A DNA stretch of 63,775 bases, filler included, from Craspedostauros australis (Eukaryota), in the NCBI GenBank assembly GCA_030167865.1. It is 10 parts of 10 records of this genome, joined end to end, with 100 filler letters (N's around TTAATTAATTAA, not from the genome) between each part and the next. Parts side by side here need not be neighbours in the genome. Positions count along the whole stretch, not along the records: positions 1 to 3,380 come from JALAGF010000062.1; 9 more parts are not named here. The stretch is one strand, 5' to 3'. Both the position numbers and the translations under genes were made by a program. Shown here in pieces: positions 1-55,445 of this stretch; position 1 is the stretch's first letter, and each line of letters opens with the position of its first letter. Under the pieces are notes generated by a model, which was not told the DNA's origin, made no database searches, and saw only the letters and a program-made list of their open reading frames with translations.

Positions 1-398
1 ACTGTTACTGTTGTTGCTATTGATTGTTGGTGAGCGAGCGTGGGGTATGAGATGATCAAGATGCTCTCTTGATCCATCTCTTCCCTGCTCTCATTGCTTG
101 GTGCAATCCTCTTGCACCTCCATGCACATTGCTCTCATGTTGCTCGTTGATGTTGACTTGATCGTTAACGTTGTCGTTTCTCTCTCGTTGTCTCGTCGTT
201 GTTCCGTTCTCGGGTTTTGTTGAATCTGATGATTGATCGAATCTGATGGAATATTCACAACATATTTCATTCCTGTAGACCTGGTAGTTAAGNNNNNNNN
301 NNNNNNNNNNNNNNNNNNNNNNNNNNNNNNNNNNNNNNNNNNNNNNNNNNNNNNNNNNNNNNNNNNNNNNNNNNNNNNNNNNNNNNNNNNNNNNNNNN

Positions 399-823
399 TG
401 TGACGTCATAGTTTTGTGTCGTGATTCCGCCACCGAATAGTCTAGATGGCGGCAAGCAAGTGTGACTGATGCATACACATCCGAGTACACACATTCCGAC
501 ACCGGTGAATCCACGGTCGCGCCGCGAGCGTGGAACTTCTGCGTATGCTGTCGGGTCACCTCCCATCCAGACTCGTGTACAATGTCGCCGTCCGCCCCTG
601 AGTCTAGAATGATATAGCCATGGCTACTATTCGTTACTCTTGCCCGTCGAATCGTGTGCTCTGTATGTGGGTGGGTTGTGCTGTGACGCGACACCTGTAG
701 CGTATCCGGGGCTGTGGCCGCCGGCTTACTCTCCGCAGTATCATTCTCCAGCTCGGTGTTCTCCCGATCCTTGACACGAATGCTGACTTCCGATTGACGG
801 CGTGTGACGGCCGCCGGTGGTTG
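399..823 (-). CDS. pol: Pol N-terminus (aspartic protease), same frame as gag, truncated by N gap
   Basis: Manual translation after the gag TGA is open: QPPAAVTRRQSEVSIRVKDRENTELEND...LQVSRHSTTHPH...GYIILDSGADGDIV. No in-frame ATG precedes the DSG motif. Confidence 0.7.
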
Positions 824-2203
824 TCAGGTACTGTTGTCGCACGGTCCGTACTTCTTGACACGATCGGTCTTGTTGCCGAATCTCGCGCGCTTGTTGGACT
901 TGCGCTGAGCTTGTTGCTCTTGGGTTTTGGCGAACTCAGCAGGCTTGGCGCGCTTTAGCGCGGCCTCGCCCATGAGCTCTCCGGTGCTGCGGAAGTGGCG
1001 TGAAGACTCCACCACGAGCACTTGTGCTGCGGGAGGGAGGCTTCGGAACACCACGTCCGGCAGACGATAGTGGGAGGACTTCTTGCGGTCGCCGGCCACC
1101 TTGTCAAACGATCGCTTGCGATCTGGACGGCTGTCCCTCTGGTGCATGCGGCGGCTCCGTCCTGGAGACTTGTCGAGGTCGGCGTTGGCGAGGATCTTGT
1201 CGTGGCGCATGAGCGTCTCGCGGACCCAGGAGAAAGACTCCTTGGTCTGCTGCAAGCTCGTGATAACGCTGGCAAATCGCTCGTCGCGGATGTTGCGGAA
1301 GAATCTTGCAATCTTCTCCTGATCGTTCATGACCTTCCCGTTGTCCTCGATTGCGTGGAGAGACATGGAGAAGTCGTTGACGAACGTTCCGAATGGACCG
1401 TCGCCAGTGTAGATGAGCTTGGAGAGTCTTGCTTCCTCCTCGGCCACGATTCCAGCCCAATTCTCACTGGACTCGTAGATCCGGATGAGAGCCTGGAAAG
1501 CAGCATGGCCACTGGGCTCCTCTGCCGTGACGATGTACTGCGCGTCTCCCTTGCACGTCTTGGACTTGAAGACCGCGTAGAACTGAGCGTCCACCGACGC
1601 GCGGTAGTGTGGTGGTCTTTCTGCCTCCATGTAGTAAGCGTATCTGGTGGTGACCAGCTGTCGCATGAAGTCTGTCTTCCACTGGTACCATTCGATGTTG
1701 AGACCGCTGAATGGCTCTGCCTCGGGCATGGTGACTTTGTCATACCGCCATCTGGTTGGAGTCGACTGCGATCGGTTGAGCTCCTGCTGGCGTCGTGGCG
1801 AATGTACCACGACCTCGCGGCTGGCAGCCTCCGTGAGTTCGCGACTTGCTGCCTTCATGTCTGCCTCCAATTGCAACTGGGTTGCGCGGAGTGCGACCGG
1901 AGTCTCGATGGTGGGCACTTCATATCCAGGGGACTTGATGAACTCGTCAATGGCGTCCCAATCGGTGGCTTGGTCGATTTGTTGCTCTTTCGCGAAAGCA
2001 AAGATGCGAAGGATGTTTTCGATGTTGATCGAAGTGAGGGTTGGTGAGAGAGACAAAGTCTGAATGATGTTCTTCTCTGGACTCTGGATGGCACGTTCAA
2101 TCCTGCCAAGCTTCTTGCGGATGAACTCCATGTCAGCGTCTTCAAGCTCAACGAGCTCCTTGATGACGGTCGTCCAGGTACGGTTGTTGATTGGTCTCGC
2201 CAT
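824..2203 (-). CDS. gag: Retrotransposon Gag (459 aa from ATG at 2203)
   Basis: EPFSGLNIEWYQWKTDF...FYAVFKSKT.KGDA...SGHAAFQAL resembles Copia capsid. Basic C-terminus has no CCHC knuckle. First ATG is in ACCATGG context; stop TGA at 826-824. Confidence 0.75.
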   Translation of the reverse strand: MARPINNRTWTTVIKELVELEDADMEFIRKKLGRIERAIQSPEKNIIQTLSLSPTLTSINIENILRIFAFAKEQQIDQATDWDAIDEFIKSPGYEVPTIETPVALRATQLQLEADMKAASRELTEAASREVVVHSPRRQQELNRSQSTPTRWRYDKVTMPEAEPFSGLNIEWYQWKTDFMRQLVTTRYAYYMEAERPPHYRASVDAQFYAVFKSKTCKGDAQYIVTAEEPSGHAAFQALIRIYESSENWAGIVAEEEARLSKLIYTGDGPFGTFVNDFSMSLHAIEDNGKVMNDQEKIARFFRNIRDERFASVITSLQQTKESFSWVRETLMRHDKILANADLDKSPGRSRRMHQRDSRPDRKRSFDKVAGDRKKSSHYRLPDVVFRSLPPAAQVLVVESSRHFRSTGELMGEAALKRAKPAEFAKTQEQQAQRKSNKRARFGNKTDRVKKYGPCDNST

Positions 2204-2279
2204 GGTGGTTGGTGTTGTAACGTGATAAGCTTGATGGTAGATCACGACTCTTAATCTGTCAAAGTGCACAAGTAACTAC

Positions 2280-2428
2280 TGTAGACATATTGGCCCGTTG
2301 TTGCGTGCCCTGGTCGGAGCTCTTGTTCTTTATTTGTGAGTTGTCCGAAGACAAACCCCCGACCAGTATTTGTGACTAATATGATTAGTAAAGAGGTAAG
2401 AAGGTACAGAGAAAGTTGTCATGAAACA
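2280..2428 (-). repeat. Putative 5' LTR (about 150 bp, TGT...ACA)
   Basis: Minus strand reads TGTTTCATG...AATAAA...ATATGTCTACA and ends about 75 nt upstream of the gag ATG. No second copy in the window, so boundaries are tentative. Confidence 0.3.
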
Positions 2429-3380
2429 CAGCGGAACAGTTCGGCTCCAACCCGCAGCAACCGTCGCCAGCACGACCTTCCCCTCCACCCGACGACCGCT
2501 TTGCACCACATGAAGCGAGGGCGAGCCAGGAGCAACGACAGCAGCGGCAATGGTGACAGATCTCTTTTGCTGACCATGTCTTGTTGTCGCGCAACCATCG
2601 CTTTCTGCTTCGCTGTAACCATTGCACTCGTCATAGTTGTGCGCGGCAGCAGCACCTTCTTTGGGGCCAATGCATTCTCGTCATGATGGTGGAATCGCCT
2701 CATTCTCCATGTGTATGCTTGCCTACCATTCCCACGCACTCTTCAAAGATCTCCAAAACAGGTGAAAGACCAAGGGAAGCAAGATTGAGAGTTGTCGTTT
2801 GCCCATGCTGACCAACCATGAAGTACAGTGAGAAAGCAATCCAATTGCTCCCGATTGCCGATTGCGCGTCTGCGCGGAACTTAGCTTTGTTTCCGTTATT
2901 GGCATCTTCCGCTTCACTGTGGGCGTGGCCATTTGAACCACATGTATCGACCAGACATTGCACGAACGAGATTGTATCAACCGGACTGGTCATCGTGACG
3001 GTACTGGTGAGCGTCACTGCATCTGCGCGCAGAAGTTCCACTGTGCGGATCTGTGCTGACAAAAATGATGTCGGTCAATAGTCACAATTTTGGCGTTAGA
3101 ACGACACGTGCAATTTCCGTTATTGGATTCAGCAGGCCGACTGATCTTCCGATGGTCCCTATTTGAATTTTGTCGCACCTGCCCAAAGGTGTCTGTTGTG
3201 ACCAAATTCAGTCGTTGTTGGAATTCTTTGTGGTAACTCCTCGTTGGATTGTTTGGCCGCAAAATCTCCGCTGGTTGTTGTGGCGAGGTGACGAAAGGTG
3301 TTGTTGTTGTGCACAACAGGCCCTGGTCTGCACTGCAGCGCGCTTCGACGGCACGACGGTGCCATGATGGTGTTCAGAGC

Positions 3381-3480
3381 NNNNNNNNNNNNNNNNNNNN
3401 NNNNNNNNNNNNNNNNNNNNNNNNTTAATTAATTAANNNNNNNNNNNNNNNNNNNNNNNNNNNNNNNNNNNNNNNNNNNN
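3381..3480. other. Artificial contig linker N44-TTAATTAATTAA-N44. Also at 34420-34519, 35614-35713, 37448-37547, 42641-42740, 47831-47930, 52112-52211, 57688-57787 and 61013-61112
   Basis: Identical 100-nt spacer with stops in all six frames occurs nine times. Confidence 0.98.
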
Positions 3481-10652: not shown

Positions 10653-13358
10653 ATGAACCCGGTCGTCATGAGCCACAACGCACATCTGGAGGATCCATTC
10701 CATCGCCCGCAGACGCCAACCGATGTCGACCATGTTGGCGAAGACACTCCAGCAACCCTCGTTGGTGTTGCCGCTGATGGGCACGGCATCAGCAACGATG
10801 ACCTGATGACGAACCACCGGCGGCCTGGCTTGGACACCTACTTCCTGCATCACCAGAACGAACGTCAGCACCAGCAACAGCAGGGACAGATGGACAATGC
10901 CAACGACCCATGCAACTCATCCGTCCCATCTGGTTGCACCACCATCACCAGCGTGAGCAACTGGAATGCCGGCAGCCACTACCACCCTCATACCACCGTC
11001 ATCAGTGGTCGCACGATCGCCAGCAACAGCAGCATGGCGAGCGAAGATATCTCCTACCCATCCTCCATCGATGAGAACGGCACGATGTTCGGGCAGCGCA
11101 AGCGCGATCAACATCAGAATCAGCACGCAGCGTATCCATCCAGCGGCGACAAGATCACGCAGTCACCCACCAGCACCACGACAAGGTCATTCACTGCCCA
11201 GCAACATCTGCAGCCCCAGCCTCCGCAACATCTGGGACCGCGATCTGACATCATCGATTCCGACAGCCTGGCCGCATCCTCCATCGGCAAGCCTCGGAGC
11301 CGAAGCCGCACCAGACGCCGCAGTTCCATGGACACGGCTTCGACAAACCGAAGCGGCGCATCCAAGTCCAGGTCCACCTCGAAGACAAACGCAAAGGGAA
11401 GGGCGAGGACAAGGACGGCATCCAGGCCAAGATCCAAGTCCAGATCGAGGTCCAAATCGAGATCAAAGTCCAAAGCCAAGGCCAAGACAACGACGAAGCC
11501 CAAGTCCAAAACTCGTTCTTCATCCACCAAGCCGCCCAAAACACCTGGCAACAGCTCACACTTCGCACCCAGCAATAGCCACCATCACCATGACGATCCC
11601 TACTTCATGGGATCGGAACACCGCTACTCGTCGGACACGCCGACGCATCCCGACACCGAGAACCTGGAGAGCTTCTTGGAGACTCAGAGGATGGCAGAAA
11701 AGTTCCTCAACCAGCTTGCACTCAACGGCCGTGGCAACGGTGGCAGGGCATCCGCAGGACGACGCAGCCCCACGCCCAAACAGCGGAGGCAGAGCAGCGA
11801 AAGGCGCCGCCGTTCCCAAAGCCGCGGCAAGAGACGATTCGCATCCTCTTCCTCGTCTTCCATGTCCCTTTCATCCACTGATGCCTCCAACAACAGGAGC
11901 AGCAGCAGCATCGCGGACGACCACTTCCACAACCATTACTATCCGCCATTGCCCATTGGAGTATCGGGGGGCACATCTCTCAGCAACAATGGAAGTTACA
12001 CCGACGTGTACGGCGCCCTGGATGACCCTAGCGCCGTCACATACCCAGACGAGCTCGACTCGCTGCCATCGATCGGTGGCACAACCATCCAGACGCGTTC
12101 CACCGCGATGGGCAGCGGCTCAGTGGCAAGTCAGAATTCGTATTCCTCACGCAAGCTCCATCGCACCCGGGTTTCCAGCACCCGAGGTAGTGCCAACAAC
12201 AGCAGCGGCACTAGCAGCGGCAACAACAACAAAGACGATAAGAGTGTTTCGTCTGGCAGAAAGAAGAACGTGAATCGTTCCAACACGGATCCATCGATCA
12301 CCATCTCCATTCCGAGATCTGCGAGGACCAGCCGTCGTAGAAGCACCGGCTACACGATGGACCATTCACCACCGAGACCCAAAGCATCATCATCGTCGTC
12401 GTCTTCCAAGAAGAAGGGATCATCGTCTTCGGCTTCCGTGGCATCAATGCGTTCAGCGATGCCGAGATCCAAGCGTCACACCTACTCCAAAAGTCATTCC
12501 GAGCGACACCTCACAAGCAAGGCAAAAAGCGAGCGCGGTGAGCAAATGAGCCGCCGCAACGACGACAAGGAGGACGACCAGCAACCCCACCGCAGTTCGC
12601 AATTGCAACGCCAACTCTCGTCGTACTCCAAGAGCAGCAGCATGAAGCAGCGCTCGGATATCTCGCCACATCGTTCCAAATCCTCTCGATCTCTGGCATT
12701 CCTGGATCAAGCCAACCGCAGCTGTCCAACATTCGACAGCGATGACACCTCGTTGATCTCCTCAACAAATGATGTCGTGGATGCACCCACCATTGACGGG
12801 CAGGGAAATCCTGGCACCTACACCGGAACCATCCAAGCAAGCACCCAGGTCCCGCACGGATACGGTCGCATGGAGTACAATAACCACCCTTCGTGCTACT
12901 ACCACGGACAGTGGGTGAACGGCATCCGTTCCGGCCACGGCAAGTCCAGCAACGCCCTTGGCGATCTGTACATCGGAACGTTCTGGGATGACAAGGAGCA
13001 TGGTAACGGCACCATCAAGTTCCACGACGGCCGTGTCGTCCAAGGCCAATTCGACAACGGACAGCTCCACAACGGTGTCATGAACTACCAGGATGGCAGC
13101 AAGTACAAGGGCACCTTCAGCAACGGAAAGCGTGACGGCGGAAAGTACTACTTCGTGGATGGCAGCATCTACGAAGGCCAGTTCAAAAACGACATGATGG
13201 ACGGCCACGGCACTCTGTTCTGGTTGAACGGCAGCAAGTACGTAGGTTCCTGGGAATGCGGCGTGCGACAAGGAGAAGGTATCGAATACCGATCCGACGG
13301 CACGACGCGTCATGCGGGAACATGGTCCAATGGCAAGATCATCAAGAAGGACAAATGA
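10653..13358 (+). CDS. MORN-repeat protein with long Ser/Arg/Lys-rich disordered N-terminus
   Basis: 901-aa ORF with C-terminal Y.G.(W/F).....HG.G repeats (YHGQWVNGIRSGHG, YEGQFKNDMMDGHG, YVGSWECGVRQGEG). No kinase domain seen. Confidence 0.9.
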   Translation: MNPVVMSHNAHLEDPFHRPQTPTDVDHVGEDTPATLVGVAADGHGISNDDLMTNHRRPGLDTYFLHHQNERQHQQQQGQMDNANDPCNSSVPSGCTTITSVSNWNAGSHYHPHTTVISGRTIASNSSMASEDISYPSSIDENGTMFGQRKRDQHQNQHAAYPSSGDKITQSPTSTTTRSFTAQQHLQPQPPQHLGPRSDIIDSDSLAASSIGKPRSRSRTRRRSSMDTASTNRSGASKSRSTSKTNAKGRARTRTASRPRSKSRSRSKSRSKSKAKAKTTTKPKSKTRSSSTKPPKTPGNSSHFAPSNSHHHHDDPYFMGSEHRYSSDTPTHPDTENLESFLETQRMAEKFLNQLALNGRGNGGRASAGRRSPTPKQRRQSSERRRRSQSRGKRRFASSSSSSMSLSSTDASNNRSSSSIADDHFHNHYYPPLPIGVSGGTSLSNNGSYTDVYGALDDPSAVTYPDELDSLPSIGGTTIQTRSTAMGSGSVASQNSYSSRKLHRTRVSSTRGSANNSSGTSSGNNNKDDKSVSSGRKKNVNRSNTDPSITISIPRSARTSRRRSTGYTMDHSPPRPKASSSSSSSKKKGSSSSASVASMRSAMPRSKRHTYSKSHSERHLTSKAKSERGEQMSRRNDDKEDDQQPHRSSQLQRQLSSYSKSSSMKQRSDISPHRSKSSRSLAFLDQANRSCPTFDSDDTSLISSTNDVVDAPTIDGQGNPGTYTGTIQASTQVPHGYGRMEYNNHPSCYYHGQWVNGIRSGHGKSSNALGDLYIGTFWDDKEHGNGTIKFHDGRVVQGQFDNGQLHNGVMNYQDGSKYKGTFSNGKRDGGKYYFVDGSIYEGQFKNDMMDGHGTLFWLNGSKYVGSWECGVRQGEGIEYRSDGTTRHAGTWSNGKIIKKDK

Positions 13359-18900: not shown

Positions 18901-21042
18901 TTACGTCACTCCATTGATGTCATCCTCTTCCACTGGAAGGCCTTGGATCCATCTACCTTGATGCTCGATCGCACCATCTTCGTTGAAGTGCGTTCCGAAC
19001 CCATCCATCTGACCATTCTTCCAGTCGCCATTGTAGTGGCTGCCATCCGACCACTGCATGCGACCACGGCCATGGACTTGATCATTCTCCCATTGCCCTT
19101 CGTAGTACGTGCGTTCGCTGGCATCGAAGAAGTATGTGCCGAAGCCATGCCGTTTGTGATTGGCGAAGAGGCCGATGTACTTGGTGCCATTCGCGAATTC
19201 CATGGTGCCATCCTTCATGGCGTTGTCTTGGAATTGACCATCGAAGACACGGCCATCGTGAAAGCGGTATGTGCCGGTGCCATGCTTTTGGCCATTGAGG
19301 AATGCCCCGGTGTATTGATCATCGGAGGTGAGTACGAGAATGCCGTGACCATGGAACTCGCCAGAATGCCACTCCCCCGTGTACGATCCGTAGTGTTGTT
19401 GGAGATGGACTTGTTGCGGCTGCGTCTGGTCTTGGAGACAACGGACACTGCGTTGGTAGACGATGGTGCCATAGCCTTCTGGGAGCTGTGAATTTTGGGA
19501 CAGCGCTCCACTGTACTGACCCTTTCGACCCTTGGCATCGCGCAGAGGTCTGTCCTGGACTTGCTTCAAGCTCGGCGTAAGCCCAGTGGATGCTAGATGC
19601 TGCAGATGCCGTGACGGAGATGTTTCTTCCCCATGGGGGCTGACAATGCTGCCATCGCTGCCTCCTCTTTCACCATCACCTCGTTCTGTTCGTTCGGCTG
19701 CTTCCGCTTCCGCTCTCGCTCCCGCCACTGTCGACGATGACGTCCACTCGTCAGGCCCCGAATTCAGATCGCTCACAAGATGCTTCCCGGACTGTTCCAG
19801 CTTCGCCAACGACATTTCTCTGGGGAAATTGACGAATCTCCTCGAGCTGACGCGGAGATTCCGAGGGTTCGCACCATCCGCTTTTGGCGCATCGATATGA
19901 ACGTCGCCATCGGATGGTGCTCTGTTCCGGCTGCTCCGTTTCGTTTGGCGTTGCCTTGTGAATCGGAATGGGATATCCGGAATGGACTGTGGCTGTCTTG
20001 CCTCGGATGTGCTTTCCTGTTCCGGCATGTTCGGAGGTGAGTCCAACGGTGCTGGTGGGTGATACTCGTGCTTCATTCGGTTGGGCTTTGCTGCAGGCAG
20101 CGATTGAGCCCTCGCTGATTCATGGCGATGATGATGATTCTTGCCGATCGTTTCGATGGTTCGTTCACTGACGGAGAGTCGGTCTCCACCAGCCTCATTA
20201 TTTGATGCGAAAGAGCCGTACTGATCCAGCACTGAAAAACTCGGTTGAGGCCGCAGCATCTTTCTGGGGGTGAAGGATGATTCCGCCGCAAAGCTCACAA
20301 CTGTTTCGAGCTTTGCTCTCTTCGGCTCGATGGTTTCCATGCGGGTGGTCCTTGCATGCTCATTCTTGTGAATGGTCTGGTCTATGTCACCCGTTCCCAC
20401 GATGGACTCATTCAACGTCGACCCCAACGTCAGGCCGGACACGACGCTTCCTGGCATGCGGTCGCGATCCCGGAAGCCGATAGTTGTCCCAACAGGCTCA
20501 TTTGTTCGATTGCTTGTGGTAGGCAATCCAATCTCTTCCAGTGGAGGCTTGGTTGCGGCAGCGCTGCGTGCTGCTTGGTTGCGCGCAATCGACATTGTCG
20601 TGAGTTTGTAGAGGTTGTTCGCGATTGGCGTGGTTGGCAGGTAGGATACGTAGCGATCCTTCTTCGTTTGCTGCGGTGTCGCCTGCTGCCGGTGCTTCTT
20701 CTTGATGGGCGCATCTTCTCTGAAATCCGGACGAAAACTAACAGAATCCCTGCGTCCTTCCTGAGCCTGTAGTCGACGCTCCTGATCGGACATCATCTTC
20801 TGCATGCGATGGAGTTCGGTTTGCAGATGCTGGATGTACGAATCCTTTTTCTGGACCTCCTGCCTTAGGGTCGTCAAGACGATGGATGACACATCAGTCT
20901 CCGGTCCTACGGAAGGCGAACGAGAAAGGCGCTGCGAGACGCGAGGCATCGGCGGCACTGAAGTCACCGATTCCGAAGAGCCGCGCTGCCGTAGCGTCTT
21001 TCGTGATCTAGCCCGCGTGAGAAGTACGATGGACCAAGTCAT
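18901..21042 (-). CDS. MORN-repeat protein with N-terminal coiled coil and disordered linker
   Basis: 713-aa ORF; coiled-coil-like LRQEVQKKDSYIQHLQTELHRMQ and C-terminal MORN repeats (YTGEWHSGEFHGHG, YEGQWENDQVHGRG). Confidence 0.9.
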   Translation of the reverse strand: MTWSIVLLTRARSRKTLRQRGSSESVTSVPPMPRVSQRLSRSPSVGPETDVSSIVLTTLRQEVQKKDSYIQHLQTELHRMQKMMSDQERRLQAQEGRRDSVSFRPDFREDAPIKKKHRQQATPQQTKKDRYVSYLPTTPIANNLYKLTTMSIARNQAARSAAATKPPLEEIGLPTTSNRTNEPVGTTIGFRDRDRMPGSVVSGLTLGSTLNESIVGTGDIDQTIHKNEHARTTRMETIEPKRAKLETVVSFAAESSFTPRKMLRPQPSFSVLDQYGSFASNNEAGGDRLSVSERTIETIGKNHHHRHESARAQSLPAAKPNRMKHEYHPPAPLDSPPNMPEQESTSEARQPQSIPDIPFRFTRQRQTKRSSRNRAPSDGDVHIDAPKADGANPRNLRVSSRRFVNFPREMSLAKLEQSGKHLVSDLNSGPDEWTSSSTVAGARAEAEAAERTERGDGERGGSDGSIVSPHGEETSPSRHLQHLASTGLTPSLKQVQDRPLRDAKGRKGQYSGALSQNSQLPEGYGTIVYQRSVRCLQDQTQPQQVHLQQHYGSYTGEWHSGEFHGHGILVLTSDDQYTGAFLNGQKHGTGTYRFHDGRVFDGQFQDNAMKDGTMEFANGTKYIGLFANHKRHGFGTYFFDASERTYYEGQWENDQVHGRGRMQWSDGSHYNGDWKNGQMDGFGTHFNEDGAIEHQGRWIQGLPVEEDDINGVT

Positions 21043-22135: not shown

Positions 22136-24772
22136 TCACCTTGCTTCGGTGCTGGATGTGTGAAGCTCAACATCTTCCACCACTGGGAGGCCTTGGACCC
22201 ATCTACCTTGATGCTCGATTGTGCCATCTTCGTTGAAGTGCGTTCCGAACCCATCCATCTGACCATTCTTCCAGTCGCCATTGTAGTGGCTGCCATCCGA
22301 CCACTGCATGCGACCACGGCCATGGACTTGATCATTCTTCCACTGCCCTTCGTAGTACGTGCGTTCGCTGGCATCGAAGAAGTATGTGCCGAAGCCGTGG
22401 CGCTTGTGATTGGCGAAGAGGCCAACGTACTTGGTGCCATCAGTGAATTCCATGGTGCCATCCTTCATGGCGTCGTCTTGGAATTGACCATCGAAGACAC
22501 GGCCATCGTGAAAGCGGTATGTGCCGGTGCCATGCTTTTGGCCATTGAGGAATGCCCCGGTGTATTGATCATCGGAGGTGAGTACGAGAATGCCGTGACC
22601 ATGGAATTCGCCAGAATGCCACTGCCCCGTGTATGATTCGCACTTTGTGCAGTCCCGAGGAGGTTGGGCGTTGTGTTGGTATAGAATGGTGCCGGAGCCT
22701 TCGGGGAGCTGCGAGATGCGGCACAGCGTTCCAGTGTACCGTCCCTTGCGGCCGTCGGCGTCGCGCAGAGGTCTGTCTTGAACTTGTTTCAAGCTCGGCG
22801 TATTGCCTTGGCTGGCTGAATTCTGCGGATGTTGCAATGGCGCGAGCTCATCGATGCTGTTCACGTTGTTGTGACCATCGCCTGATTCTCTCCACGAGAA
22901 TTCAATGTCCGCGCTTGTGCTTGTTCTTGCCTGGGACTCTTCAAGCTTCATCAAGGAAGCTTCTCTTGGGAAGTTGACGAACCTCTCGGAAGTGACGCGG
23001 AGATTCCTTCGGTTTGTGCGGACTGCTGCGCTTTCGTTGTTGATGATGCTTGCAGGAGCGGCATCATGCACTTTCATGTCCGGGAAATGGGTTGGAGGCT
23101 GAACAACGGGGGCGGTGGTAGTTGGTTGCTCGACGACGGGATGGTAGACGGATGGGCGGTGCACGTTTGGCGAGCCAGCATCAGAATCAGGACGGCGATC
23201 GCCATACGATGTTGTTCTATTTCCGCTGTTTCGCTTTGGGCGGCGCTGATTTGTTTGTTGGAATGGGGCGGTTTCGATGGTCTGAGGACCCTTGTCTTCC
23301 CGCGGAATCTGGAGAAAGGCTGGCAGATAGACCTGATCGCCAAAGCTATGTGCCGAGGCATCCATGGTTTGGGAAGATACTTCGGCATTTAGCGGCGCTG
23401 GTGGACGGTATTGGTGCTTGCGTTGACGAGTCCTTGGCGTGGACAATGACAGCTCAACGTTTGTGGTTGCATCGTTGTGTGTGGCGTTTGCATGGCTTCG
23501 CCTGTCGCTGCTGCGAACGGCCGGGTTGATCGTTCCGTTGCGAGAAAACGATGCGATCTGATCCATCGCGGAGAAACTTGGTTGGGGCAGCAGCATCTTT
23601 CTTGGCGTGAAAGGAATCTTTGCCGTAGTAGCCGCGGGTCCATCGGGCTTGGTCTGATCCTTGTCTGCACTGATGCCTTCAGCACTGGTCCTATCGTTCA
23701 CATTGTCGGCGTTGGCGTCGTCACTGCCATTGCCATCACCATCATCGACAACGGCTTCGTCGGAATCGAATGTCTTCGTCGACGGTCTCTTCAGTGCCGA
23801 CGCAAGCGTGAGACTGGATATGAGGCGCGCGCCATGAAGAGCATGCTGATGGACATCGATGGTGGTACCGACGGGGACATGCGGAAGACCCTCCGCACAA
23901 CACACGTCGGCTGGTGAGCCGGCCCTGGGCACCCTCTTGCTCGGGACAGCTGAGGTCGAAAGCTTCTTGAGGTCGTTTGCTGCTGGCAGAAATGAGGTGG
24001 TGGTGACCCTCCGAGCCGGTTCCTGCGGTGGAGAAGGATCGTCATCTCCATCACAGCGACGAATGTTGCGAGCGTCCGCTGGCATGCTTTCGTCTCTCGC
24101 GCCATCCGAGCAGAGTTGCATATCACCATCGGACTGGTGGCGGCAGTTCTTCGCACGCTGGATCATTCGACCGTTGATGGGTTCCACCGTATCAACCGCA
24201 CTGTCGGCATCGTCGCCTTCTTCCCTTTTCTTCGTGCTCTCATCGATCTGAAGCAGGTCATGCTCATCTGCTGGAGTACTAGCAGGAGGGACCTTGGCAT
24301 CAGAACCAGCATTGTCAACATCAACAACATCGGCATCGTTTCCGATTCGTGGCGTTGGACTTTTGGGCGGCTTTGCTGCTGCTGCTGCTGCTGAGTCCAG
24401 AGTTTGGATGATCCCTTGGTCAGCGTTGAACACGAACTGGCAATTTGGACAGCGCAGGTTCGTGTGGGCCGCACCCGGTGGCGTGTTTGCAGCCGCATGC
24501 TCGTGATCATGCTGGTGCTGAGCTCGCTCTTGTTGCAGCGCTCTCGTTTGCAACTGCTGGAGCTCCGCTTGGAGATGCTCAATGTAATTCTCCTTGCGGC
24601 GCAGCTCCTGCCTCAGCGTGGCCAGCAAGATGGCGGAGATTGGCGAAGAGTCCGAACCAATGGATGACGATAGGGACGAGTGTTGCGACACGCGCACAAT
24701 GGGCGACGACGAAACGACGAGGCCTTCTTTCGTCCTTTGAGACGTACTCGTGATGACGGAGGTTGTGGACAT
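22136..24772 (-). CDS. MORN-repeat protein, tandem paralog of 18901-21042
   Basis: ORF open from 24802 with first ATG at 24772. MORN block is nearly identical to the neighbour. Confidence 0.9.
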   Translation of the reverse strand: MSTTSVITSTSQRTKEGLVVSSSPIVRVSQHSSLSSSIGSDSSPISAILLATLRQELRRKENYIEHLQAELQQLQTRALQQERAQHQHDHEHAAANTPPGAAHTNLRCPNCQFVFNADQGIIQTLDSAAAAAAKPPKSPTPRIGNDADVVDVDNAGSDAKVPPASTPADEHDLLQIDESTKKREEGDDADSAVDTVEPINGRMIQRAKNCRHQSDGDMQLCSDGARDESMPADARNIRRCDGDDDPSPPQEPARRVTTTSFLPAANDLKKLSTSAVPSKRVPRAGSPADVCCAEGLPHVPVGTTIDVHQHALHGARLISSLTLASALKRPSTKTFDSDEAVVDDGDGNGSDDANADNVNDRTSAEGISADKDQTKPDGPAATTAKIPFTPRKMLLPQPSFSAMDQIASFSRNGTINPAVRSSDRRSHANATHNDATTNVELSLSTPRTRQRKHQYRPPAPLNAEVSSQTMDASAHSFGDQVYLPAFLQIPREDKGPQTIETAPFQQTNQRRPKRNSGNRTTSYGDRRPDSDAGSPNVHRPSVYHPVVEQPTTTAPVVQPPTHFPDMKVHDAAPASIINNESAAVRTNRRNLRVTSERFVNFPREASLMKLEESQARTSTSADIEFSWRESGDGHNNVNSIDELAPLQHPQNSASQGNTPSLKQVQDRPLRDADGRKGRYTGTLCRISQLPEGSGTILYQHNAQPPRDCTKCESYTGQWHSGEFHGHGILVLTSDDQYTGAFLNGQKHGTGTYRFHDGRVFDGQFQDDAMKDGTMEFTDGTKYVGLFANHKRHGFGTYFFDASERTYYEGQWKNDQVHGRGRMQWSDGSHYNGDWKNGQMDGFGTHFNEDGTIEHQGRWVQGLPVVEDVELHTSSTEAR

Positions 24773-25979
24773 GGTTGAGTTGGTTTGGGTCGATGTTTTC
24801 ACAACAGATATGTGATGGCGTGGGTAGCGATGACGGTGGTGGCGATGACGGTGGTGGCAAGGAGGTGGGGGAGGGTATCAGTGTTGGTTTCAGTCCGGCT
24901 ATAGCTGTGGGCACGTGCTTTGATGCAATTGCCCGAAAGGCAAGATGGAATAAATGAGAGGAAAGTGTCCATGACTCGGATGCTGCTATCCATCGTGTCG
25001 ATGTCACTGATGGCGCTCACGATGATGGCAGCAATGAAGAAGTGCCGCGTTGGCACACGATTGTCGCGCCCGACTCTCATCCGCGCTCTGTTGGCGGGTT
25101 GTTTTGCATTTCCGCCACCACCTCGTTCGATTTGGTCTTGGGTCGCGATCTTGGGAACGCTCGCACTCCCTTCGCCGTGTTGGTGTCACGTTTCAATAAT
25201 CAGAACACCCCACAAGAAGATGCTGTTGTTCACGAGGAGGATGGTGGGACAAAGAACCCACAAAACGAGAACAGTGACACGGCGTGAGCATGTGCATCGT
25301 GCGAGTGGTACACACTTTGCTTCCGTTGCAACGAAGTGATAACAAATGTTCTTGGATGTGCCAACAGCACAACAAAGCAAAGTGCGGCTTTGCTTTTCAT
25401 GTGTGTGATTCGGATTCAACCAGAACCACGACTCCAGCACTTTTTCTTGGATCTTTTCGTGATGTTGTGACACGATGTGACAAAATATTCGAAAGCAGAT
25501 ATCCAAACTAGACAACATCCGATCACACGCAAATGCTCGTACATATGGAGTGCTCAAGGCTCAAAGCGACCTGAGAGCGCATGGTGAGTCCCAGTGGGTA
25601 TGAACAACTCATACCATGTGATTCTGATCAGCCATGTCGTCTCGCAGCTCTCAATATCGGCGTACCTGTGTGTCGCTGTTCCCACAATGCCTGTAGAAGC
25701 GTTGTCAGAAACAGTTGCTTCACATCCTGGGACGGTGGACTCTGCATACGTACGACTATGTGCGGCCATTCTGCGTTCACATGAACCAAAGCAAGGTAGG
25801 ACATCGCCAATCAAAGCACGAATACCAGGTGATTCAACCCATCCACAGCCGGGCCTCCAACCTGAAGATGAATGGAGCCAAGGAAAGAAGAAGAGAAGAT
25901 GACCGTGCAGAGGAAAATATCCAAAATGGTACGGCGAAATGAACAAGAATATGAGAGGGACATACTCTGTAGTATGTCC

Positions 25980-34419: not shown

Positions 34420-34519
34420 NNNNNNNNNNNNNNNNNNNNNNNNNNNNNNNNNNNNNNNNNNNNTTAATTAATTAANNNNNNNNNNNNNNNNNNNNNNNNN
34501 NNNNNNNNNNNNNNNNNNN

Positions 34520-35613: not shown

Positions 35614-37162
35614 NNNNNNNNNNNNNNNNNNNNNNNNNNNNNNNNNNNNNNNNNNNNTTAATTAATTAANNNNNNNNNNNNNNNNNNNNNNNNNNNNNNN
35701 NNNNNNNNNNNNNATATATGGTTAAATTTTAGTCTCCATAGGAGCCCATTTTTTCAGAATCCTGCCGTGGTCGTACGGTCATTGGCTGACGTGGGTCTTA
35801 ATTTGTTCAATACGTGATTTCTGAGAAAGTGTCAAAGTTCCACAATTCCTCGTGCGAAACCAACCACGCAATCCCACCGCCTCTGCCAGCGTTCACAACG
35901 AGAATCGATCGGACAGGGAACAGATCGTCTGCGTCACATGGTTCCAAATGAGAACCCCAAGCGCAACAAAGCTCGGGAAAATTGACTCAATCTCCCCTCA
36001 ATTCACCCTTCAATGGGATGGCTTGCTCGTAGCAGTGATAAAGTCTAAGACATTTGATTGGCTGGGGTCGCCGGCCATGCCAAAAAATAGCCACTCGAAC
36101 CCCTCTATTAACCAATCAGAAACAAGAAACACAACATTGCATACAGAGTTCTGTCAGTCAACATCAAAGACGTTTCTCTTTGTTCCCGAGTCTTTGTCAC
36201 GGATGCATTGAAGAATTAACGACGATATGTCTGAGTCGCTCTTTCGTGGCCATTGTTTGGAGTCGCTCGTCTGTCCGAACTTGTTGTCGTGGCTGTCTGC
36301 CAAGCACGAAGCAAATGCTGACCACCACACAAGCGTATGATGCAAACGACACAGACTTATGAATCAAACACGAACACGGAGTAGCGGCAAAAACAAATAT
36401 TGTGGACAAACAACACATGTCATCAAGCCAGAAGGCTACCTCTGACTCTCTAGATGGACAGACAGACAGACAGACCACATATGTACATTTCCTACGTGAA
36501 ACTCTTTAAGAGTATAATGGCTTACTTGTTGAGTAGCAACACAAAGGGGACAACACAATCGCAGCACCAAATAGTCGGCATGCATGTTGATGTGTGTGTG
36601 CATCACTCATACAATTGTCCTCTCAATAGGGTCAGGCAATGGTTCGTGAATGAAAAAGAGGAAGAGGAGAAAAAGGGTGTTGTGATCGTCGGAGTCGGAC
36701 GATTTCGCGCACGCTGATTTTCGAGCATTGGGGTGGGACTCCATAAATTCGGAATCAGTCCGTCACTCATTTGATTGCGGCTATATCCCTCTATTCGGTT
36801 GCGCGGCAGTCCTGTGCAGTTTCGCTGCTCGAAACTCAATGTGGGCCTTCACAGGGGCTGGTGGCTGAGAAACTGGATGCGATAGTCATAATGCTCCGTA
36901 TGAATCTCGTGTTGCCGATGACGGTCTTTTCGGGATGTTCTTGGCAGGACGTGAGGGACAAATGCTCTTGAGCCGAGTTGACCAACTCGTTTCCGTCTTG
37001 ATCGGAAACTGTGTCAACTGTCAGTGATAACCAACCAACAGGGACAAACAACAATGGAATCGCAGTGGATGGTCACAAAATGAAGAAACAGAGCAAATCC
37101 ATCTCGCATAATCTAATATTATACGACTATCTGTTCACATACCCACCTTCTCTCCCTCCATC

Positions 37163-37447: not shown

Positions 37448-37738
37448 NNNNNNNNNNNNNNNNNNNNNNNNNNNNNNNNNNNNNNNNNNNNTTAATTAAT
37501 TAANNNNNNNNNNNNNNNNNNNNNNNNNNNNNNNNNNNNNNNNNNNNTCGGGTGCAATCCCCGGGCATTCCAGATTTCGTCGTCTGGGGTTCGATTCCTT
37601 TCTCTTTGCCATTTTCTGTTTATCCTAACACACACATCTCCAGGTGTGCAACTGGAATTGAAGGAGGCAAGTCTATTCCAGAGTGCCGAGAGGATCGTAT
37701 TGGCTTTGCGATGGAATGTATTACAATGCAATGTGAAT

Positions 37739-40537
37739 TTATGGATATGATTCATCGAGACCAAGCTGTTCGTTGACACACTTCACGATCTCGTGCTCGA
37801 AAGCCGATAGGCTTGCCGGGAGGTCATCCGTACTGCTGACGTCGCAGTAGCAGTTTTCGCTTTCGTCATCGTCGGCGGCAGCGTTGTCGCCATCGTTGTC
37901 GGCGTCCAGATTCCGGCCGCGACCTCGGACCATCGACGGCGACGTTGACGATGGCTTCGCCGGCTCTGCCATGGATGCAGATTCCAGCCTTTCGCTTCGT
38001 TCTTGGCGGATGCTCTCGCGAGCCAACGCGCGTCGTTGGCGTTGATTCTCAGCTGAATCATCCATGGCGAATGTACCCACGGACGGATTCCTGAACTTGG
38101 TATTGCTTAGGTCTTGTGTCCACCGATCCTTCTGACCCATTGCAGCCACCAGAGCGCGGTTGCGGCTCCGATTGCGACGACGATCACCCCCATCCAAAGT
38201 GTCGAAGAGCTGCACCGTGGATATGTTGCATCCTCGGCACTGGGCCTTCACGTCGTACGTGATCGTCGGCGTCGTATCCGAAGCAGACGTCAACGTAGCC
38301 TCCATGATCGACACGAAATTCGAATCGCACACTTCGAGCGATGCGACTTCGTATGCCACGATGGCGCATTCCTCGAACGCCTCTCGCTCTTCGTCTGACA
38401 GCACGTCCACCGACCTTCCGTTGAGGAAAGAGGCGAAGACATTGTCAAGGGAGATCGTGGCATTGAATGGTGTGGGCTTGCTGGGGCAGCTCGTCTCCTG
38501 GACCTCCTGGATGATTTCGAAGGTGTTACTTGCATCTTCATCCAGCAGTGCGAGGGCTTCCGATGGCAGAGGAGCACGGTTCGCCAGCTTGTTCGAGACA
38601 GGACAGTAGCATAGCTTGGATGACACATCAGATATTGGTTCCCCTGGTGGCGGTAGCGACGACGATGGCGGCGGTGGTAGCGGCAAGCCAGTGTTGAGTG
38701 ATCTTTGGACAGCACTCGTCTGCCATTGGACATCGTCTTCGTCGAAGCTGTCCCAATCGATCTTGTACCGTGGGTCGCTTTCGAGATGTCGGGCATAGTG
38801 GAAGGTAATGTCATCGGAGAAGCTGAATGAGTTGGCGCAGCTGATACAAATCCCAGCCAATGCGTACAGAAACATACTGTAGCCGATGGAGCCTGAGAAG
38901 TCAGTGGAGGTTTGCAGATGGCGTGTTTGTTCGCGTTCCTCGAGTTGCTGCAACATGCGCCTTCGCTTGTCGGAGGCTCCGGTGGTGTCGCGCCGTTCAA
39001 TGGCTGTGAGCTGGCGATGGGTTCTGTCGCAGGTATCTTGAGAGAAGTAGTTGAGTTCGTTGTAAGCGGCGAGAATGTCTTGTTCCAGGTCGGCCATATC
39101 ATCGGCGTCGGATACATTGACTTGATTTGTGTTGATCAAGATGGCGACGGTGCTGGTGAATGTTTCGAACAGATCCGTAGTGTTGGTGCAAGCAGGATCT
39201 TCCTGGACTTGGANNNNNNNNNNNNNNNNNNNNNNNNNNNNNNNNNNNNNNNNNNNNNNNNNNNNNNNNNNNNNNNNNNNNNNNNNNCTCGTCTTCTCGA
39301 GTCCGGCTGCCGTGCTGGCGTCACGTTGCAATGCCCGGGATCGCCTAACTTCTGCCATCTTCTGTTCCAACACGGTGATAAACTCATCCTTGAAGTCGCC
39401 CCGACGGGGACCACGGCAATCCTGGCATGCGCTTTCGGCTTCTGTGCCAGCATCCTCTGGTGTCACTGTCTTGCTGAGCGATTCGAGGGTTGGGTCAGCG
39501 ATTGTTGTAGGAGTGGATGGTTGCACTTCGTCCGAGTTCTTCGTGGTCTTCACCGTGGCAGGTTCCAATGTGTGCTTCTTGAGCATACGGTGCGTCGCAA
39601 ACGACAGACGTCCGCTTGAGTTCTTGTTGGCATCAGATATTGGCGAATGAAGATCGAGATGGTCGGCTGTACGCTCAGCAGTTGCGCCTTTCTTCTGTGG
39701 CATGTCTTTCTTTGTAGGTGCGTCTCGTGGTTCGGGGTGTTGTCCTGGATGAGCGATGGAAGGTTGGGCAGCACTGTCCGAGTTATCAGACAGGAGGACG
39801 CCACGGTCCTCGGCGGTGGCCAGGATATCAGTCAAACGAAGTGTGGCGTCGCCATCATTATTGTTGTTCCCATCAGAGATATCAGCCAACCGCCGACGAG
39901 CGTCGTTGTCGCTGTTGTCGTTGGCATCGACGTCGAAGTCGATGTCCTCAAAGAAGAGCTCGGCGCGTTCGAGGCCATCGACATTGATGGTCTTGCAGCT
40001 GTTGCATTCCAGGAGCATCTCCAGAACCAAAGTCATCTTTCGAGGCTTCTTCTGTTCCATCTTCTTCTCACCAGATGTCCCAGCAAAGCCTTTGACTTCT
40101 GTCGATACGTCGGCGACCCTGCAGTTCTTGACCAACCTCACAGATCCCTGCTGGGGACATGACGCCAAGTTGTTGTAGGCGATCTCAAAGGACTCCGACA
40201 GCATTTGCTTATCTTCGTCGCTCAAGTCTTCTGGGACACCTTTAAGACGAACGAACGCAGCCGTTTCGAAAACCTCAGGCGTCGCCTCGCAGATCACGGA
40301 GGTGTCCGTTTCGTTGTCTTCATCCAGCACATCCCATGTGTCGCCTATGGGCTCTTCCACTGGGCCTTCGAGCACCTCCAGGGCATCCTCATCGAGGGAG
40401 GCGGACACGAAAGTAGTGCCACCCGTACCGTTGCCTGGCATAGATTGGCACAACAGGAGCAGGACCAAGACTATGGTGGTGACTACAAGTCTATGTTGCC
40501 AAAGGCCTCCTCGTTGTCGTTGGTATGTCACCCTCAT
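37739..40537 (-). CDS. Secreted acidic protein with many RxL sites and three Cys-containing repeats (copy A; N gap 39214-39287)
   Basis: Hydrophobic N-terminal segment; three repeats of AY(N/E)...C ... CxxC ... (L/S)F; more than ten RxL motifs. Confidence 0.85.
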   Translation of the reverse strand: MRVTYQRQRGGLWQHRLVVTTIVLVLLLLCQSMPGNGTGGTTFVSASLDEDALEVLEGPVEEPIGDTWDVLDEDNETDTSVICEATPEVFETAAFVRLKGVPEDLSDEDKQMLSESFEIAYNNLASCPQQGSVRLVKNCRVADVSTEVKGFAGTSGEKKMEQKKPRKMTLVLEMLLECNSCKTINVDGLERAELFFEDIDFDVDANDNSDNDARRRLADISDGNNNNDGDATLRLTDILATAEDRGVLLSDNSDSAAQPSIAHPGQHPEPRDAPTKKDMPQKKGATAERTADHLDLHSPISDANKNSSGRLSFATHRMLKKHTLEPATVKTTKNSDEVQPSTPTTIADPTLESLSKTVTPEDAGTEAESACQDCRGPRRGDFKDEFITVLEQKMAEVRRSRALQRDASTAAGLEKTXXXXXXXXXXXXXXXXXXXXXXXXXXQVQEDPACTNTTDLFETFTSTVAILINTNQVNVSDADDMADLEQDILAAYNELNYFSQDTCDRTHRQLTAIERRDTTGASDKRRRMLQQLEEREQTRHLQTSTDFSGSIGYSMFLYALAGICISCANSFSFSDDITFHYARHLESDPRYKIDWDSFDEDDVQWQTSAVQRSLNTGLPLPPPPSSSLPPPGEPISDVSSKLCYCPVSNKLANRAPLPSEALALLDEDASNTFEIIQEVQETSCPSKPTPFNATISLDNVFASFLNGRSVDVLSDEEREAFEECAIVAYEVASLEVCDSNFVSIMEATLTSASDTTPTITYDVKAQCRGCNISTVQLFDTLDGGDRRRNRSRNRALVAAMGQKDRWTQDLSNTKFRNPSVGTFAMDDSAENQRQRRALARESIRQERSERLESASMAEPAKPSSTSPSMVRGRGRNLDADNDGDNAAADDDESENCYCDVSSTDDLPASLSAFEHEIVKCVNEQLGLDESYP

Positions 40538-42931
40538 AGTTGCTGTAGGCTACTGATGGTTGCTGATGGTGAAATGTGTTGCGGTTGGTTGAGTGTTGTA
40601 TTATGTGATTTGATGGTATTCGCAGAATGCAAGATGTGGCTACTTGTGGCGATTGCGTGTCGGCCACCTCTTTCTCTTTGAGTTCCTCGCTGTCTTGTTA
40701 TTATGAGTTACTTGTGTTCGGATGGGGAGGTCCTTTGGGAGGTGCCGCCCTGTCTTCCTCGTCTTCTTTGCACCGCCTCACTTTTTGTTCATCGCAACAA
40801 GTATCAGCCCAAGCATGCATCATGGTGTGCACAGTATACATGAGATGGATTGCCTTCGCGATAGTGCCGACAACGAGAACGACGGCGACTTCACTCGTCT
40901 GCTCTCTCCAGACAAGCGACCCAGAGATCGTGCACAAGTGTTCGTGGAGGGATACGGAAACCGGGAGCGGGGCTGTTGCATGGTGGTAGAGCAGAACAAG
41001 AAGCAAGAAAGACGACAGCCCATGAATCGGTACTTTCGAGTATGCTCCGATACCCAAAGCAGACAAACGCCCCGTTTTTTCTGTTGTCTTGTCCCTCTTG
41101 TTGCGCTCGCACAAACTCTCTACGGCAACTCTTGACGAGAAAAGGTGACATTTGCAGAGTGTGCCACTTTTTGCGATGCGGCCCAAGCAGACTCGGAGGG
41201 TATCAAAGCCAGCCGACCTCAACGTTTCGTCTCAGAGAAGGCGACTGAGCATTCGCGTCAAAGGTGTTGCAGAGATAAAAAAGTGGGCTCAAATGTTTCA
41301 GCACAGCTAAGAAAAGGTGACACACGCAGGCAACTTGATCGTGCAGCGAATACATCGAATCACGAAGACATCGGTCTTGGGCAATACCAATACATCACGA
41401 ATCGTGCATTCTCCGATCACGAGAGGGGCGAATGGAGCGGGGACGTCTTGGATGCGGGTGCAACTTGGAGAGCTCTTGCCCACAAACTGGGACGAAACGG
41501 ATGGACGTCGAGCGCGCGTGGTCCGAGCACAGCATCGAACTCTCTCTTCCGTACAACAACTCTTGTGCAATCGCGTGTGCAGGTGTGAAGGTTGATGTGG
41601 TCTCTGCCATGCTCATCCTCGCACGAGCGGGAACCGCACCAGCAAGGAGAATGTGCGAGATTGTGGATGAGCGTCTTATCTGGCGATGTTGGACCGACGC
41701 AACCTCCTCGGTCCAATGTCTTTGATGTCGCTTTTTGTGCCCTTCGGCGTCAAGAGCGGTGAACATTGGGCATGATCTGCCTCGTGCACGTATCTCTCAT
41801 GCTCGCATGTAACTCCAGAGATCCCAAGGGAGTTGCTCTCTCTCTCTCTCTCTCTGTCTGTCTACAGGTGACTCCAGGTCGCACCACGAGGCCCCCACGT
41901 CACCTCTGATTGCGATTTGTTTGGGAAGTGAGGGGGAATGCAACTCGGAGAAGTGATCATCCCACAGGGGCAGACGCACCATTCCACGCAAACCTTGCAG
42001 CGCGCCTCCAGGGTCGCGACTGATCATTGAACAACTGTCCTGTAGTCGTGCAGAGCAGATCGTTCTTTGCACCACGCCAAGCAAGCTTGAACCTGTCCTG
42101 ACATCACGATGAACTCGTGCGTCGGCACTCTTTCTCAGTTCTTTCCATGTCTATCTCCACAGAATAAGTATTCGCAGAACAGAGGAGACAAGAACAGAAA
42201 CAGAGGAGATAGTGCGTGTCTGTGGAAGTCCGCGCGTCAGCAGTCTTGGATCAGCATGATCTTGTGCGGCCGATGGCGTGTCGCGTCTCGAATGTGCGAT
42301 TGACAATGGGAAGCCTCACGAACCTGTCTCGAGAGTATCCTTTCTTGACAACAACACATGCTTCGATAGGACGGTACAGCAACAGTAGTACCCTCGAAAG
42401 CACTCGGCTCTGTTCTGCCATTCACTATGACTCCACTCTCCAGTTTCAAAAGTATACATTGTTATTGTGCATGTAATTGTGTGTAGAATAGGCAGGCCAT
42501 GCCATTGTCTAGTATGCTCTCCGCGTGTTCAATGTGTGAATGGACGATTCAACTCACTGCAGGGCTCACTGTTGACCGTTGACCAGGTCCCGCCACTCCT
42601 CCCTGTTCAGTCGATCCAGCTTGTTAATCTCATGCTTCAGNNNNNNNNNNNNNNNNNNNNNNNNNNNNNNNNNNNNNNNNNNNNTTAATTAATTAANNNN
42701 NNNNNNNNNNNNNNNNNNNNNNNNNNNNNNNNNNNNNNNNTCGGGTGCAATCCCCGGGCATTCCAGATTTCGTCGTCTGGGGTTCGATTCCTTTCTCTTT
42801 GCCATTTTCTGTTTATCCTAACACACACATCTCCAGGTGTGCAACTGGAATTGAAGGAGGCAAGTCTATTCCAGAGTGCCGAGAGGATCGTATTGGCTTT
42901 GCGATGGAATGTATTACAATGCAATGTGAAT

Positions 42932-45727: not shown

Positions 45728-47930
45728 AGTTGCTGTAGGCTACTGATGGTTGCTGATGGTGAAATGTGTTGCGGTTGGTTGAGTGTTGTATTATGTGATT
45801 TGATGGTATTCGCAGAATGCAAGATGTGGCTACTTGTGGCGATTGCGTGTCGGCCACCTCTTTCTCTTTGAGTTCCTCGCTGTCTTGTTATTATGAGTTA
45901 CTTGTGTTCGGATGGGGAGGTCCTTTGGGAGGTGCCGCCCTGTCTTCCTCGTCTTCTTTGCACCGCCTCACTTTTTGTTCATCGCAACAAGTATCAGCCC
46001 AAGCATGCATCATGGTGTGCACAGTATACATGAGATGGATTGCCTTCGCGATAGTGCCGACAACGAGAACGACGGCGACTTCACTCGTCTGCTCTCTCCA
46101 GACAAGCGACCCAGAGATCGTGCACAAGTGTTCGTGGAGGGATACGGAAACCGGGAGCGGGGCTGTTGCATGGTGGTAGAGCAGAACAAGAAGCAAGAAA
46201 GACGACAGCCCATGAATCGGTACTTTCGAGTATGCTCCGATACCCAAAGCAGACAAACGCCCCGTTTTTTCTGTTGTCTTGTCCCTCTTGTTGCGCTCGC
46301 ACAAACTCTCTACGGCAACTCTTGACGAGAAAAGGTGACATTTGCAGAGTGTGCCACTTTTTGCGATGCGGCCCAAGCAGACTCGGAGGGTATCAAAGCC
46401 AGCCGACCTCAACGTTTCGTCTCAGAGAAGGCGACTGAGCATTCGCGTCAAAGGTGTTGCAGAGATAAAAAAGTGGGCTCAAATGTTTCAGCACAGCTAA
46501 GAAAAGGTGACACACGCAGGCAACTTGATCGTGCAGCGAATACATCGAATCACGAAGACATCGGTCTTGGGCAATACCAATACATCACGAATCGTGCATT
46601 CTCCGATCACGAGAGGGGCGAATGGAGCGGGGACGTCTTGGATGCGGGTGCAACTTGGAGAGCTCTTGCCCACAAACTGGGACGAAACGGATGGACGTCG
46701 AGCGCGCGTGGTCCGAGCACAGCATCGAACTCTCTCTTCCGTACAACAACTCTTGTGCAATCGCGTGTGCAGGTGTGAAGGTTGATGTGGTCTCTGCCAT
46801 GCTCATCCTCGCACGAGCGGGAACCGCACCAGCAAGGAGAATGTGCGAGATTGTGGATGAGCGTCTTATCTGGCGATGTTGGACCGACGCAACCTCCTCG
46901 GTCCAATGTCTTTGATGTCGCTTTTTGTGCCCTTCGGCGTCAAGAGCGGTGAACATTGGGCATGATCTGCCTCGTGCACGTATCTCTCATGCTCGCATGT
47001 AACTCCAGAGATCCCAAGGGAGTTGCTCTCTCTCTCTCTCTCTCTGTCTGTCTACAGGTGACTCCAGGTCGCACCACGAGGCCCCCACGTCACCTCTGAT
47101 TGCGATTTGTTTGGGAAGTGAGGGGGAATGCAACTCGGAGAAGTGATCATCCCACAGGGGCAGACGCACCATTCCACGCAAACCTTGCAGCGCGCCTCCA
47201 GGGTCGCGACTGATCATTGAACAACTGTCCTGTAGTCGTGCAGAGCAGATCGTTCTTTGCACCACGCCAAGCAAGCTTGAACCTGTCCTGACATCACGAT
47301 GAACTCGTGCGTCGGCACTCTTTCTCAGTTCTTTCCATGTCTATCTCCACAGAATAAGTATTCGCAGAACAGAGGAGACAAGAACAGAAACAGAGGAGAT
47401 AGTGCGTGTCTGTGGAAGTCCGCGCGTCAGCAGTCTTGGATCAGCATGATCTTGTGCGGCCGATGGCGTGTCGCGTCTCGAATGTGCGATTGACAATGGG
47501 AAGCCTCACGAACCTGTCTCGAGAGTATCCTTTCTTGACAACAACACATGCTTCGATAGGACGGTACAGCAACAGTAGTACCCTCGAAAGCACTCGGCTC
47601 TGTTCTGCCATTCACTATGACTCCACTCTCCAGTTTCAAAAGTATACATTGTTATTGTGCATGTAATTGTGTGTAGAATAGGCAGGCCATGCCATTGTCT
47701 AGTATGCTCTCCGCGTGTTCAATGTGTGAATGGACGATTCAACTCACTGCAGGGCTCACTGTTGACCGTTGACCAGGTCCCGCCACTCCTCCCTGTTCAG
47801 TCGATCCAGCTTGTTAATCTCATGCTTCAGNNNNNNNNNNNNNNNNNNNNNNNNNNNNNNNNNNNNNNNNNNNNTTAATTAATTAANNNNNNNNNNNNNN
47901 NNNNNNNNNNNNNNNNNNNNNNNNNNNNNN

Positions 47931-52111: not shown

Positions 52112-52211
52112 NNNNNNNNNNNNNNNNNNNNNNNNNNNNNNNNNNNNNNNNNNNNTTAATTAATTAANNNNNNNNNNNNNNNNNNNNNNNNNNNNNNNNN
52201 NNNNNNNNNNN

Positions 52212-55219: not shown

Positions 55220-55445
55220 ATTGTACCATAGCATCGCTGCACCTCGGCATCACTGTTTTCACGGCACATTGTTTCACGGCACATTGTACCACGGCACCAT
55301 TGTACCACGGCGCATTGTTTCACGGCGCATTGTACCACGGCGCATTGTACCACGGCGCATTGTTTCACGACACATTGTACCAAGGCATCAGTGTACCAAG
55401 GCATCACTGTTTCACGGCATCATTTCACCACGGCATCACGGCAGC
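55220..55445. repeat. 15-bp minisatellite CACGGC(A/G)CATTGT(AC/TT)
   Basis: About eight well-conserved units plus degenerate flanking units. Confidence 0.9.

Follow-up and report, generated by a model that had tools for sequence, protein, structure and literature searches.

The question raised by this locus is whether a single in-frame TGA, lying between the gag gene and the protease (PR)-like region of a Copia-like retrotransposon of Craspedostauros australis (assembly GCA_030167865.1), is a leaky stop codon through which the element would set its Gag:Pol ratio or a lesion in a broken copy. In the window, meaning the whole stretch of DNA that was analysed (63.8 kb), ten short stretches of the assembly follow one another with linkers of the form N44-TTAATTAATTAA-N44 between them, and the pieces flanking a linker are not genomic neighbours. 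The gag-pol junction studied here is on the minus strand of piece one (1–3380; the first linker begins at 3381). A preliminary description of this DNA had proposed programmed readthrough of the TGA, driven by the bases CAACCA that follow it and by a downstream hairpin. Its coordinates were all found to be correct, with the TGA at 826–824, CAACCA at 823–818, the stem at 816–812/802–798 and no ATG before the DSG motif of the putative protease.

The gag open reading frame (ORF; 827..2203, minus strand, ATG at 2203–2201) comprises 459 codons and is closed by this TGA at codon 460, the sole stop within 601 codons. After the stop the same frame remains open for 141 codons (399..823, minus strand) as far as an assembly gap of 106 N (293–398, no strand), beyond which the rest of pol is lost. 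The stop is directly followed by CAA CCA (823–818, minus strand), giving UGA CAA CCA with C as the base after the stop, and thus fits the CAR-YYA context (R, purine; Y, pyrimidine) of type I readthrough, which is defined as stop-CAR-YYA and promotes readthrough at UGA and UAA as well (PMC3542737). UGA and a following C have been described as the most permissive stop choices (PMC10085805). In the gag-PR frame, CAR-YYA comes after a single codon, the TGA at 826–824, out of 599 in-frame positions. Over both strands of the window the context is present at 4 of 2245 TGAs and at 5 of 3311 stop triplets counted in any frame, and TGACARYYA was observed 4 times against 6.1 expected. The occurrence of CAR-YYA at the gag-pol TGA is unlikely by chance.

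The protein on the gag side of the stop is highly divergent. A phmmer search of the read-through protein against 1.84 billion representative proteins gave 27 matches only, the best gag relative being P0001 (E=8.4e-27, 29% identity), and a close relative of the window protein does not exist in this library. Pfam returned no match for the window gag, even at E≤5, and none for the PR piece or the read-through protein. Among the relatives, P0001, P0003 and P0022 matched PF14223 (Retrotran_gag_2) above the gathering score and P0016 below it. Because the window gag is homologous to P0001, and P0001, P0003 and P0022 match PF14223, it is, by transitive homology only, a probable divergent Copia-type Gag. 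Some of the gag relatives belong to two diatoms, Mayamaea pseudoterrestris and Pseudo-nitzschia multiseries, and another comes from an MMETSP transcriptome. Piece 1–3380 does not contain the integrase, the reverse transcriptase (RT) or long terminal repeats (LTRs) of the element. One related Gag subfamily (P0015, P0019, P0025 and others) starts with Met-Gly (MGISYSKK, MGNNYSKK, MGQINTRP), which may be an N-myristoylation signal as in retroviral Gag; the window Gag is without it.

On the other side of the stop, the sequence is consistent with a coding region in frame 0 that has no start of its own, with 141 open codons, homology to the PR region of relatives and no Met in the gag frame between the TGA and an LDSGA motif. 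This motif (codons 533–537; 607–593, minus strand) resembles the active site of aspartic proteases and aligns with IIDPG/DSGG of the relatives. The alignments of P0011 and P0026 span the TGA codon 460 in the same frame in both phmmer and tblastn, and the post-stop piece taken alone matched the PR-like region of P0011 and P0026 in BLASTP with E values of 1e-4 and 3e-4. Comparison of the post-stop piece with a six-sequence profile in hhalign gave a weak match (E=0.001, probability 21%). In P0038 (1497 amino acids, aa) the PR-like motif region is followed by PF00665 (rve) and PF07727 (RVT_2), which is the Copia domain order, and P0026 had neither a Pfam nor a PDB sequence match. An AlphaFold model of the PR piece built with 6 sequences had a mean predicted local distance difference test score of 41 and was unusable for fold. 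The motif and a weak homology point to a putative protease in the post-stop piece.

A closed gag ORF also appears among the relatives of the element. P0001 and P0028 share a length of 436 aa and are identical at 430 of 436 positions, one being encoded on a 5877-bp contig and the other derived from a transcriptome; longer fused forms of P0001 were searched for and none was found, which is weak evidence. The P0015 cluster has six members, all of 355 aa and on contigs of 3.3–5.5 kb, P0027 and P0029 have the same length (466 aa), and P0006 and P0008 are ORFs of gag size, each on a contig of about 5 kb. From these lengths, a separate gag ORF of fixed size appears to be stably kept in at least three related lineages, the nearest relative included.

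The copy in the window shows no sign of decay apart from the TGA. No frameshift or other lesion was present over 1.8 kb, and the CpG observed/expected ratio of the gag-PR stretch was 1.08. The frame holds 46 intact codons that a single transition would turn into a stop (9 CGA, 10 CAA, 19 CAG and 8 TGG). The copy, which shows no CpG decay, is a young or selected sequence and not a decayed relic.

Of the explanations considered for these data, leaky readthrough of UGA of the tobacco mosaic virus type is the likeliest, with about an even chance of being correct. It is favoured because the stop lies in the linker between gag and PR, because its context occurs at one position in 599, because the base following it is weak, because its flanks are intact and because gag is closed in related lineages. 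The TGA at 826–824 would be the element's own gag terminator, at which most ribosomes would halt to yield Gag, and the weak context of UGA-C with CAA-CCA would let a minority of ribosomes insert a near-cognate amino acid. The near-cognate amino acids at UGA are Trp, Cys or Arg. The leaking ribosomes would stay in frame and translate the protease and the remainder of Pol, so that Pol would be made at a low ratio to Gag. This presumes a native and conserved stop, a context that leaks in the host and actual synthesis of the fusion protein. A more specific and more tentative proposal, the chances of which fall a little short of even, is that a stramenopile (probably diatom) Copia-like lineage sets its Gag:Pol ratio by UGA leakage through the CAA-CCA hexanucleotide alone.

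Three known systems can be set beside this proposal. The type I signal of tobamoviruses has the same hexanucleotide, is local, needs no structure and is reported to work on UGA (PMC3542737), whereas its natural cases are mostly UAG in plant RNA viruses and the present case is a UGA in a protist retrotransposon, read from sequence. In fission yeasts, the elements Tj1, Tosmo1-3 and Tcry1 carry an in-frame TGA at the gag-pol junction, again with C as the next base. Conservation across these elements extends to the stop and its neighbours, and transposition of Tj1 requires the stop (PMC10085805). These elements differ from the one described here in being Ty3/Gypsy and not Copia, in having the context GAA-TGA-CT and in showing conservation across several elements where here there is one copy. 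The third comparison is with the CoDi (Copia from Diatoms) elements of Phaeodactylum and Thalassiosira, as the relatives of the window gag include diatom proteins. Maumus et al. had already recorded that gag and pol of diatom Copia elements can be separated by a stop or a frameshift, and their main text, the per-element table aside, gives neither a mechanism nor a sequence context (PMC2806351). No relevant paper on readthrough in diatoms or diatom retrotransposons was found in the literature searched.

A number of observations weigh against readthrough at this stop, the first of which concerns the hairpin (796..816, minus strand). In the form first noted, CGGCG at 816–812 pairs with CGCCG at 802–798 around a 9-nt loop and the stem begins at the eighth base after the stop, whereas ViennaRNA favours as the minimum-free-energy form a shifted 6-bp stem (815–810/801–796). 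The 93-nt fold at the stop gave a z-score of −1.0, and 30 of 200 shuffled sequences folded at least equally well. The share of windows along the element that folded as well or better was 4% at 30 nt, 19% at 40 nt and 32–51% at 50–120 nt. The hairpin is indistinguishable from background and probably irrelevant to readthrough, so that the structural half of the signal proposed in the preliminary description adds nothing statistically. The likeness to the type III signal of murine leukaemia virus (MuLV), which also has an in-frame stop between gag and protease with a structure about 8 nt downstream, fails as well. In MuLV the stop is UAG, the spacer is rich in purines and the structure is a compact pseudoknot (PMC3542737), whereas the eight bases after the stop in the window, CAACCACC, include 3 purines and lead into the 5–6 bp hairpin of ordinary stability just described. 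A MuLV-type pseudoknot mechanism was rejected on the ground that the spacer CAACCAC is not purine-rich; no pseudoknot was evident at the junction, the analysis having included no search aimed at pseudoknots. As a separate observation, the 9-base sequence CCGGCGGCC, encoding Pro-Ala-Ala, occurs twice on the minus strand about 93 nt apart, at 809–817 in the hairpin region and at about 716–724 downstream, a repetition that may be due to chance in GC-rich coding sequence.

The precedent of Tca2 from Candida albicans also turned out to be weaker than had been supposed. Tca2 is similar to the present element in being of Copia type with one in-frame UGA between gag and a protease-first pol, and in that its Pol must come from the gag-pol RNA (PMC2194720). 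Where the present element has CAR-YYA, Tca2 has a purine-rich spacer of 8 nt together with a putative pseudoknot, and a close sequence relation to the window element is undetectable. In the experiments reported by Forbes et al., the Tca2 junction alone gave no readthrough in Saccharomyces cerevisiae, and the authors concluded that the bypass is non-canonical (PMC2194720). Tests of CARYYA in stramenopiles were not found in the literature searched. Of the original argument for readthrough, the in-frame layout, the startless PR frame and the CARYYA context with its rarity are upheld, and the hairpin, the MuLV analogy and the strength of the Tca2 precedent are not.

Other objections come from the gag-pol layout of the relatives and also bear on the principal alternative, a private nonsense mutation (for example CGA or TGG to TGA) in a copy with a fused gag-pol, in which case the copy would be dead and the CAR-YYA coincidental. 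Gag and PR are in one ORF in P0003 and P0022 (both from Mayamaea) and in P0011, P0026, P0037 and P0038, so that the stop is not a requirement of the family. The position of the stop is a further difficulty. By eye, though without statistical support, the family shares a linker motif in which hydrophobic residues alternate and an acidic run comes next; in the window it is VSIRVKD with the acidic run after it (767..787, minus strand), and it begins 13 codons after the TGA. Also judged by eye, P0001, P0006, P0008 and P0015 have closed gag ORFs that end 7–19 residues past the linker motif, unlike the window gag, the TGA of which lies 13 codons before it. The position of the stop thus appears not to be conserved with respect to the related closed gag ORFs. 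A local alignment of the P0001 linker with the window linker was not significant, so the stop positions cannot be equated. In Pseudo-nitzschia, the gene model P0023 stops where its sister model P0037 continues, so that ORF ends vary between copies in this family.

Neither the window nor the external collections provided a second copy against which the stop could be compared. No other copy of the element was present in the window by tblastn or blastn, self-BLAST giving self matches only. Searches for the DNA of relatives found no locus in metagenome contigs (with the window protein and alignment A2), in viral contigs (alignments A2 and A4) or in prokaryote genome contigs scanned with alignment A4 and P0001. 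A single copy is seen, cut by a gap and with no LTR pair by which it could be dated. CGA to TGA is, in addition, the commonest kind of nonsense mutation. Against a private mutation, it would have had to strike the sole codon of 599 that is followed by CAR-YYA, and to do so inside the linker, leaving no further lesion in 1.8 kb, an undepleted CpG content and all 46 of the other one-transition codons intact. On balance a private mutation is possible if somewhat doubtful, and under it the locus would be an ordinary broken transposon fragment.

A native stop could also be bypassed by means other than local readthrough, with Pol arising from an in-frame splice, from an internal promoter or non-AUG start of the kind suggested for the Tca2 junction, or under the control of a long-range RNA signal in place of the hexanucleotide. 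A total of 150 frame-preserving GT..AG pairs span the stop, although the best donors fit four of the six bases of the familiar GTAAGT consensus and a splice would remove the linker motif that relatives retain as coding. No AUG is found ahead of the PR motif. Tca2, which needs a non-canonical bypass and has a promoter at the junction (PMC2194720), offers a parallel for such a route, which we nevertheless consider improbable for the window element.

A base-call or assembly error at the TGA is more improbable still. On this view a fragmented draft assembly with collapsed repeats and duplicate contigs would have produced it, and the junction is on a small gapped piece among redundant ones such as 37548–42640 and 42741–47830 (97.7–100% identity), but there is no ambiguity code near the TGA, the flanking 1.8 kb is clean in frame, and the error would have had to fall on the sole CAR-YYA position. 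Reading of the UGA as selenocysteine, or of TGA as a sense codon in the host, has a negligible probability and nothing in its favour beyond the in-frame UGA itself: TGA closes 6 of the 15 long ORFs in the window (the next base being A or T in each and C in 0 of 6), by which a changed genetic code was rejected; all 8 Trp codons of the gag-PR frame are TGG; and selenocysteine was rejected as no selenocysteine insertion sequence (SECIS) or other Rfam family was detected in 1–3380 at E≤5 save a chance match to a small RNA, the 3' untranslated region (UTR) being outside the window.

If readthrough of the UGA is real, the in-frame leaky gag-pol stop known from MuLV, from Tj1-type elements and possibly from Tca2 would extend to the mobile elements of diatoms, and this would be the first documented readthrough-type recoding signal of a diatom mobile element. 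Readthrough of an in-frame stop at gag-pol is already a known strategy, and the particular point, if real, would be the action of the tobamovirus hexanucleotide on UGA in a stramenopile retroelement. It would be a natural instance in which CAR-YYA promotes readthrough of UGA between gag and pol, and would imply a signal that works in plants, fungi and stramenopiles alike, and the six bases might perhaps serve as a tunable leaky stop for diatom expression systems. For genome annotation, retrotransposon copies with one in-frame stop at the gag-pol junction should not automatically be taken as dead.

Upstream of gag, the rest of piece one (2204..3380, minus strand) would contain the 5' UTR and possibly a 5' LTR. 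This region is without a repeat partner anywhere in the window by self-BLAST, and the 3' end of the element is missing from the window. A 14-mer led by TGG (2365–2352, minus strand), about 150 nt upstream of the gag ATG, was picked out by eye as a candidate primer-binding site for a tRNA 3' end; a tRNA scan of the window gave no tRNA gene to set beside it. The linkers between the ten pieces are at 3381–3480, 34420–34519, 35614–35713, 37448–37547, 42641–42740, 47831–47930, 52112–52211, 57688–57787 and 61013–61112.

The other pieces of the window contain several repeated or related regions. The pieces 37548–42640 and 42741–47830 are near-identical, with 3353 bp at 100% and 1666 bp at 97.7% identity, and are probably redundant or allelic contigs; each contains an ORF of 931–932 aa without a clear Pfam family. 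The pieces 47931–52111 and 52212–57687 share about 93% identity over stretches of 0.6–0.9 kb, and each has a 675-aa ORF that is followed by an AAA_16/STAND-NTPase-like ORF (50989–52167 and 55221–57743). A local cluster of paralogues is suggested by three large ORFs within 15 kb, at 10653–13358 (plus strand), 18901–21042 (minus strand) and 22136–24802 (minus strand), each of which has MORN repeats at its end.

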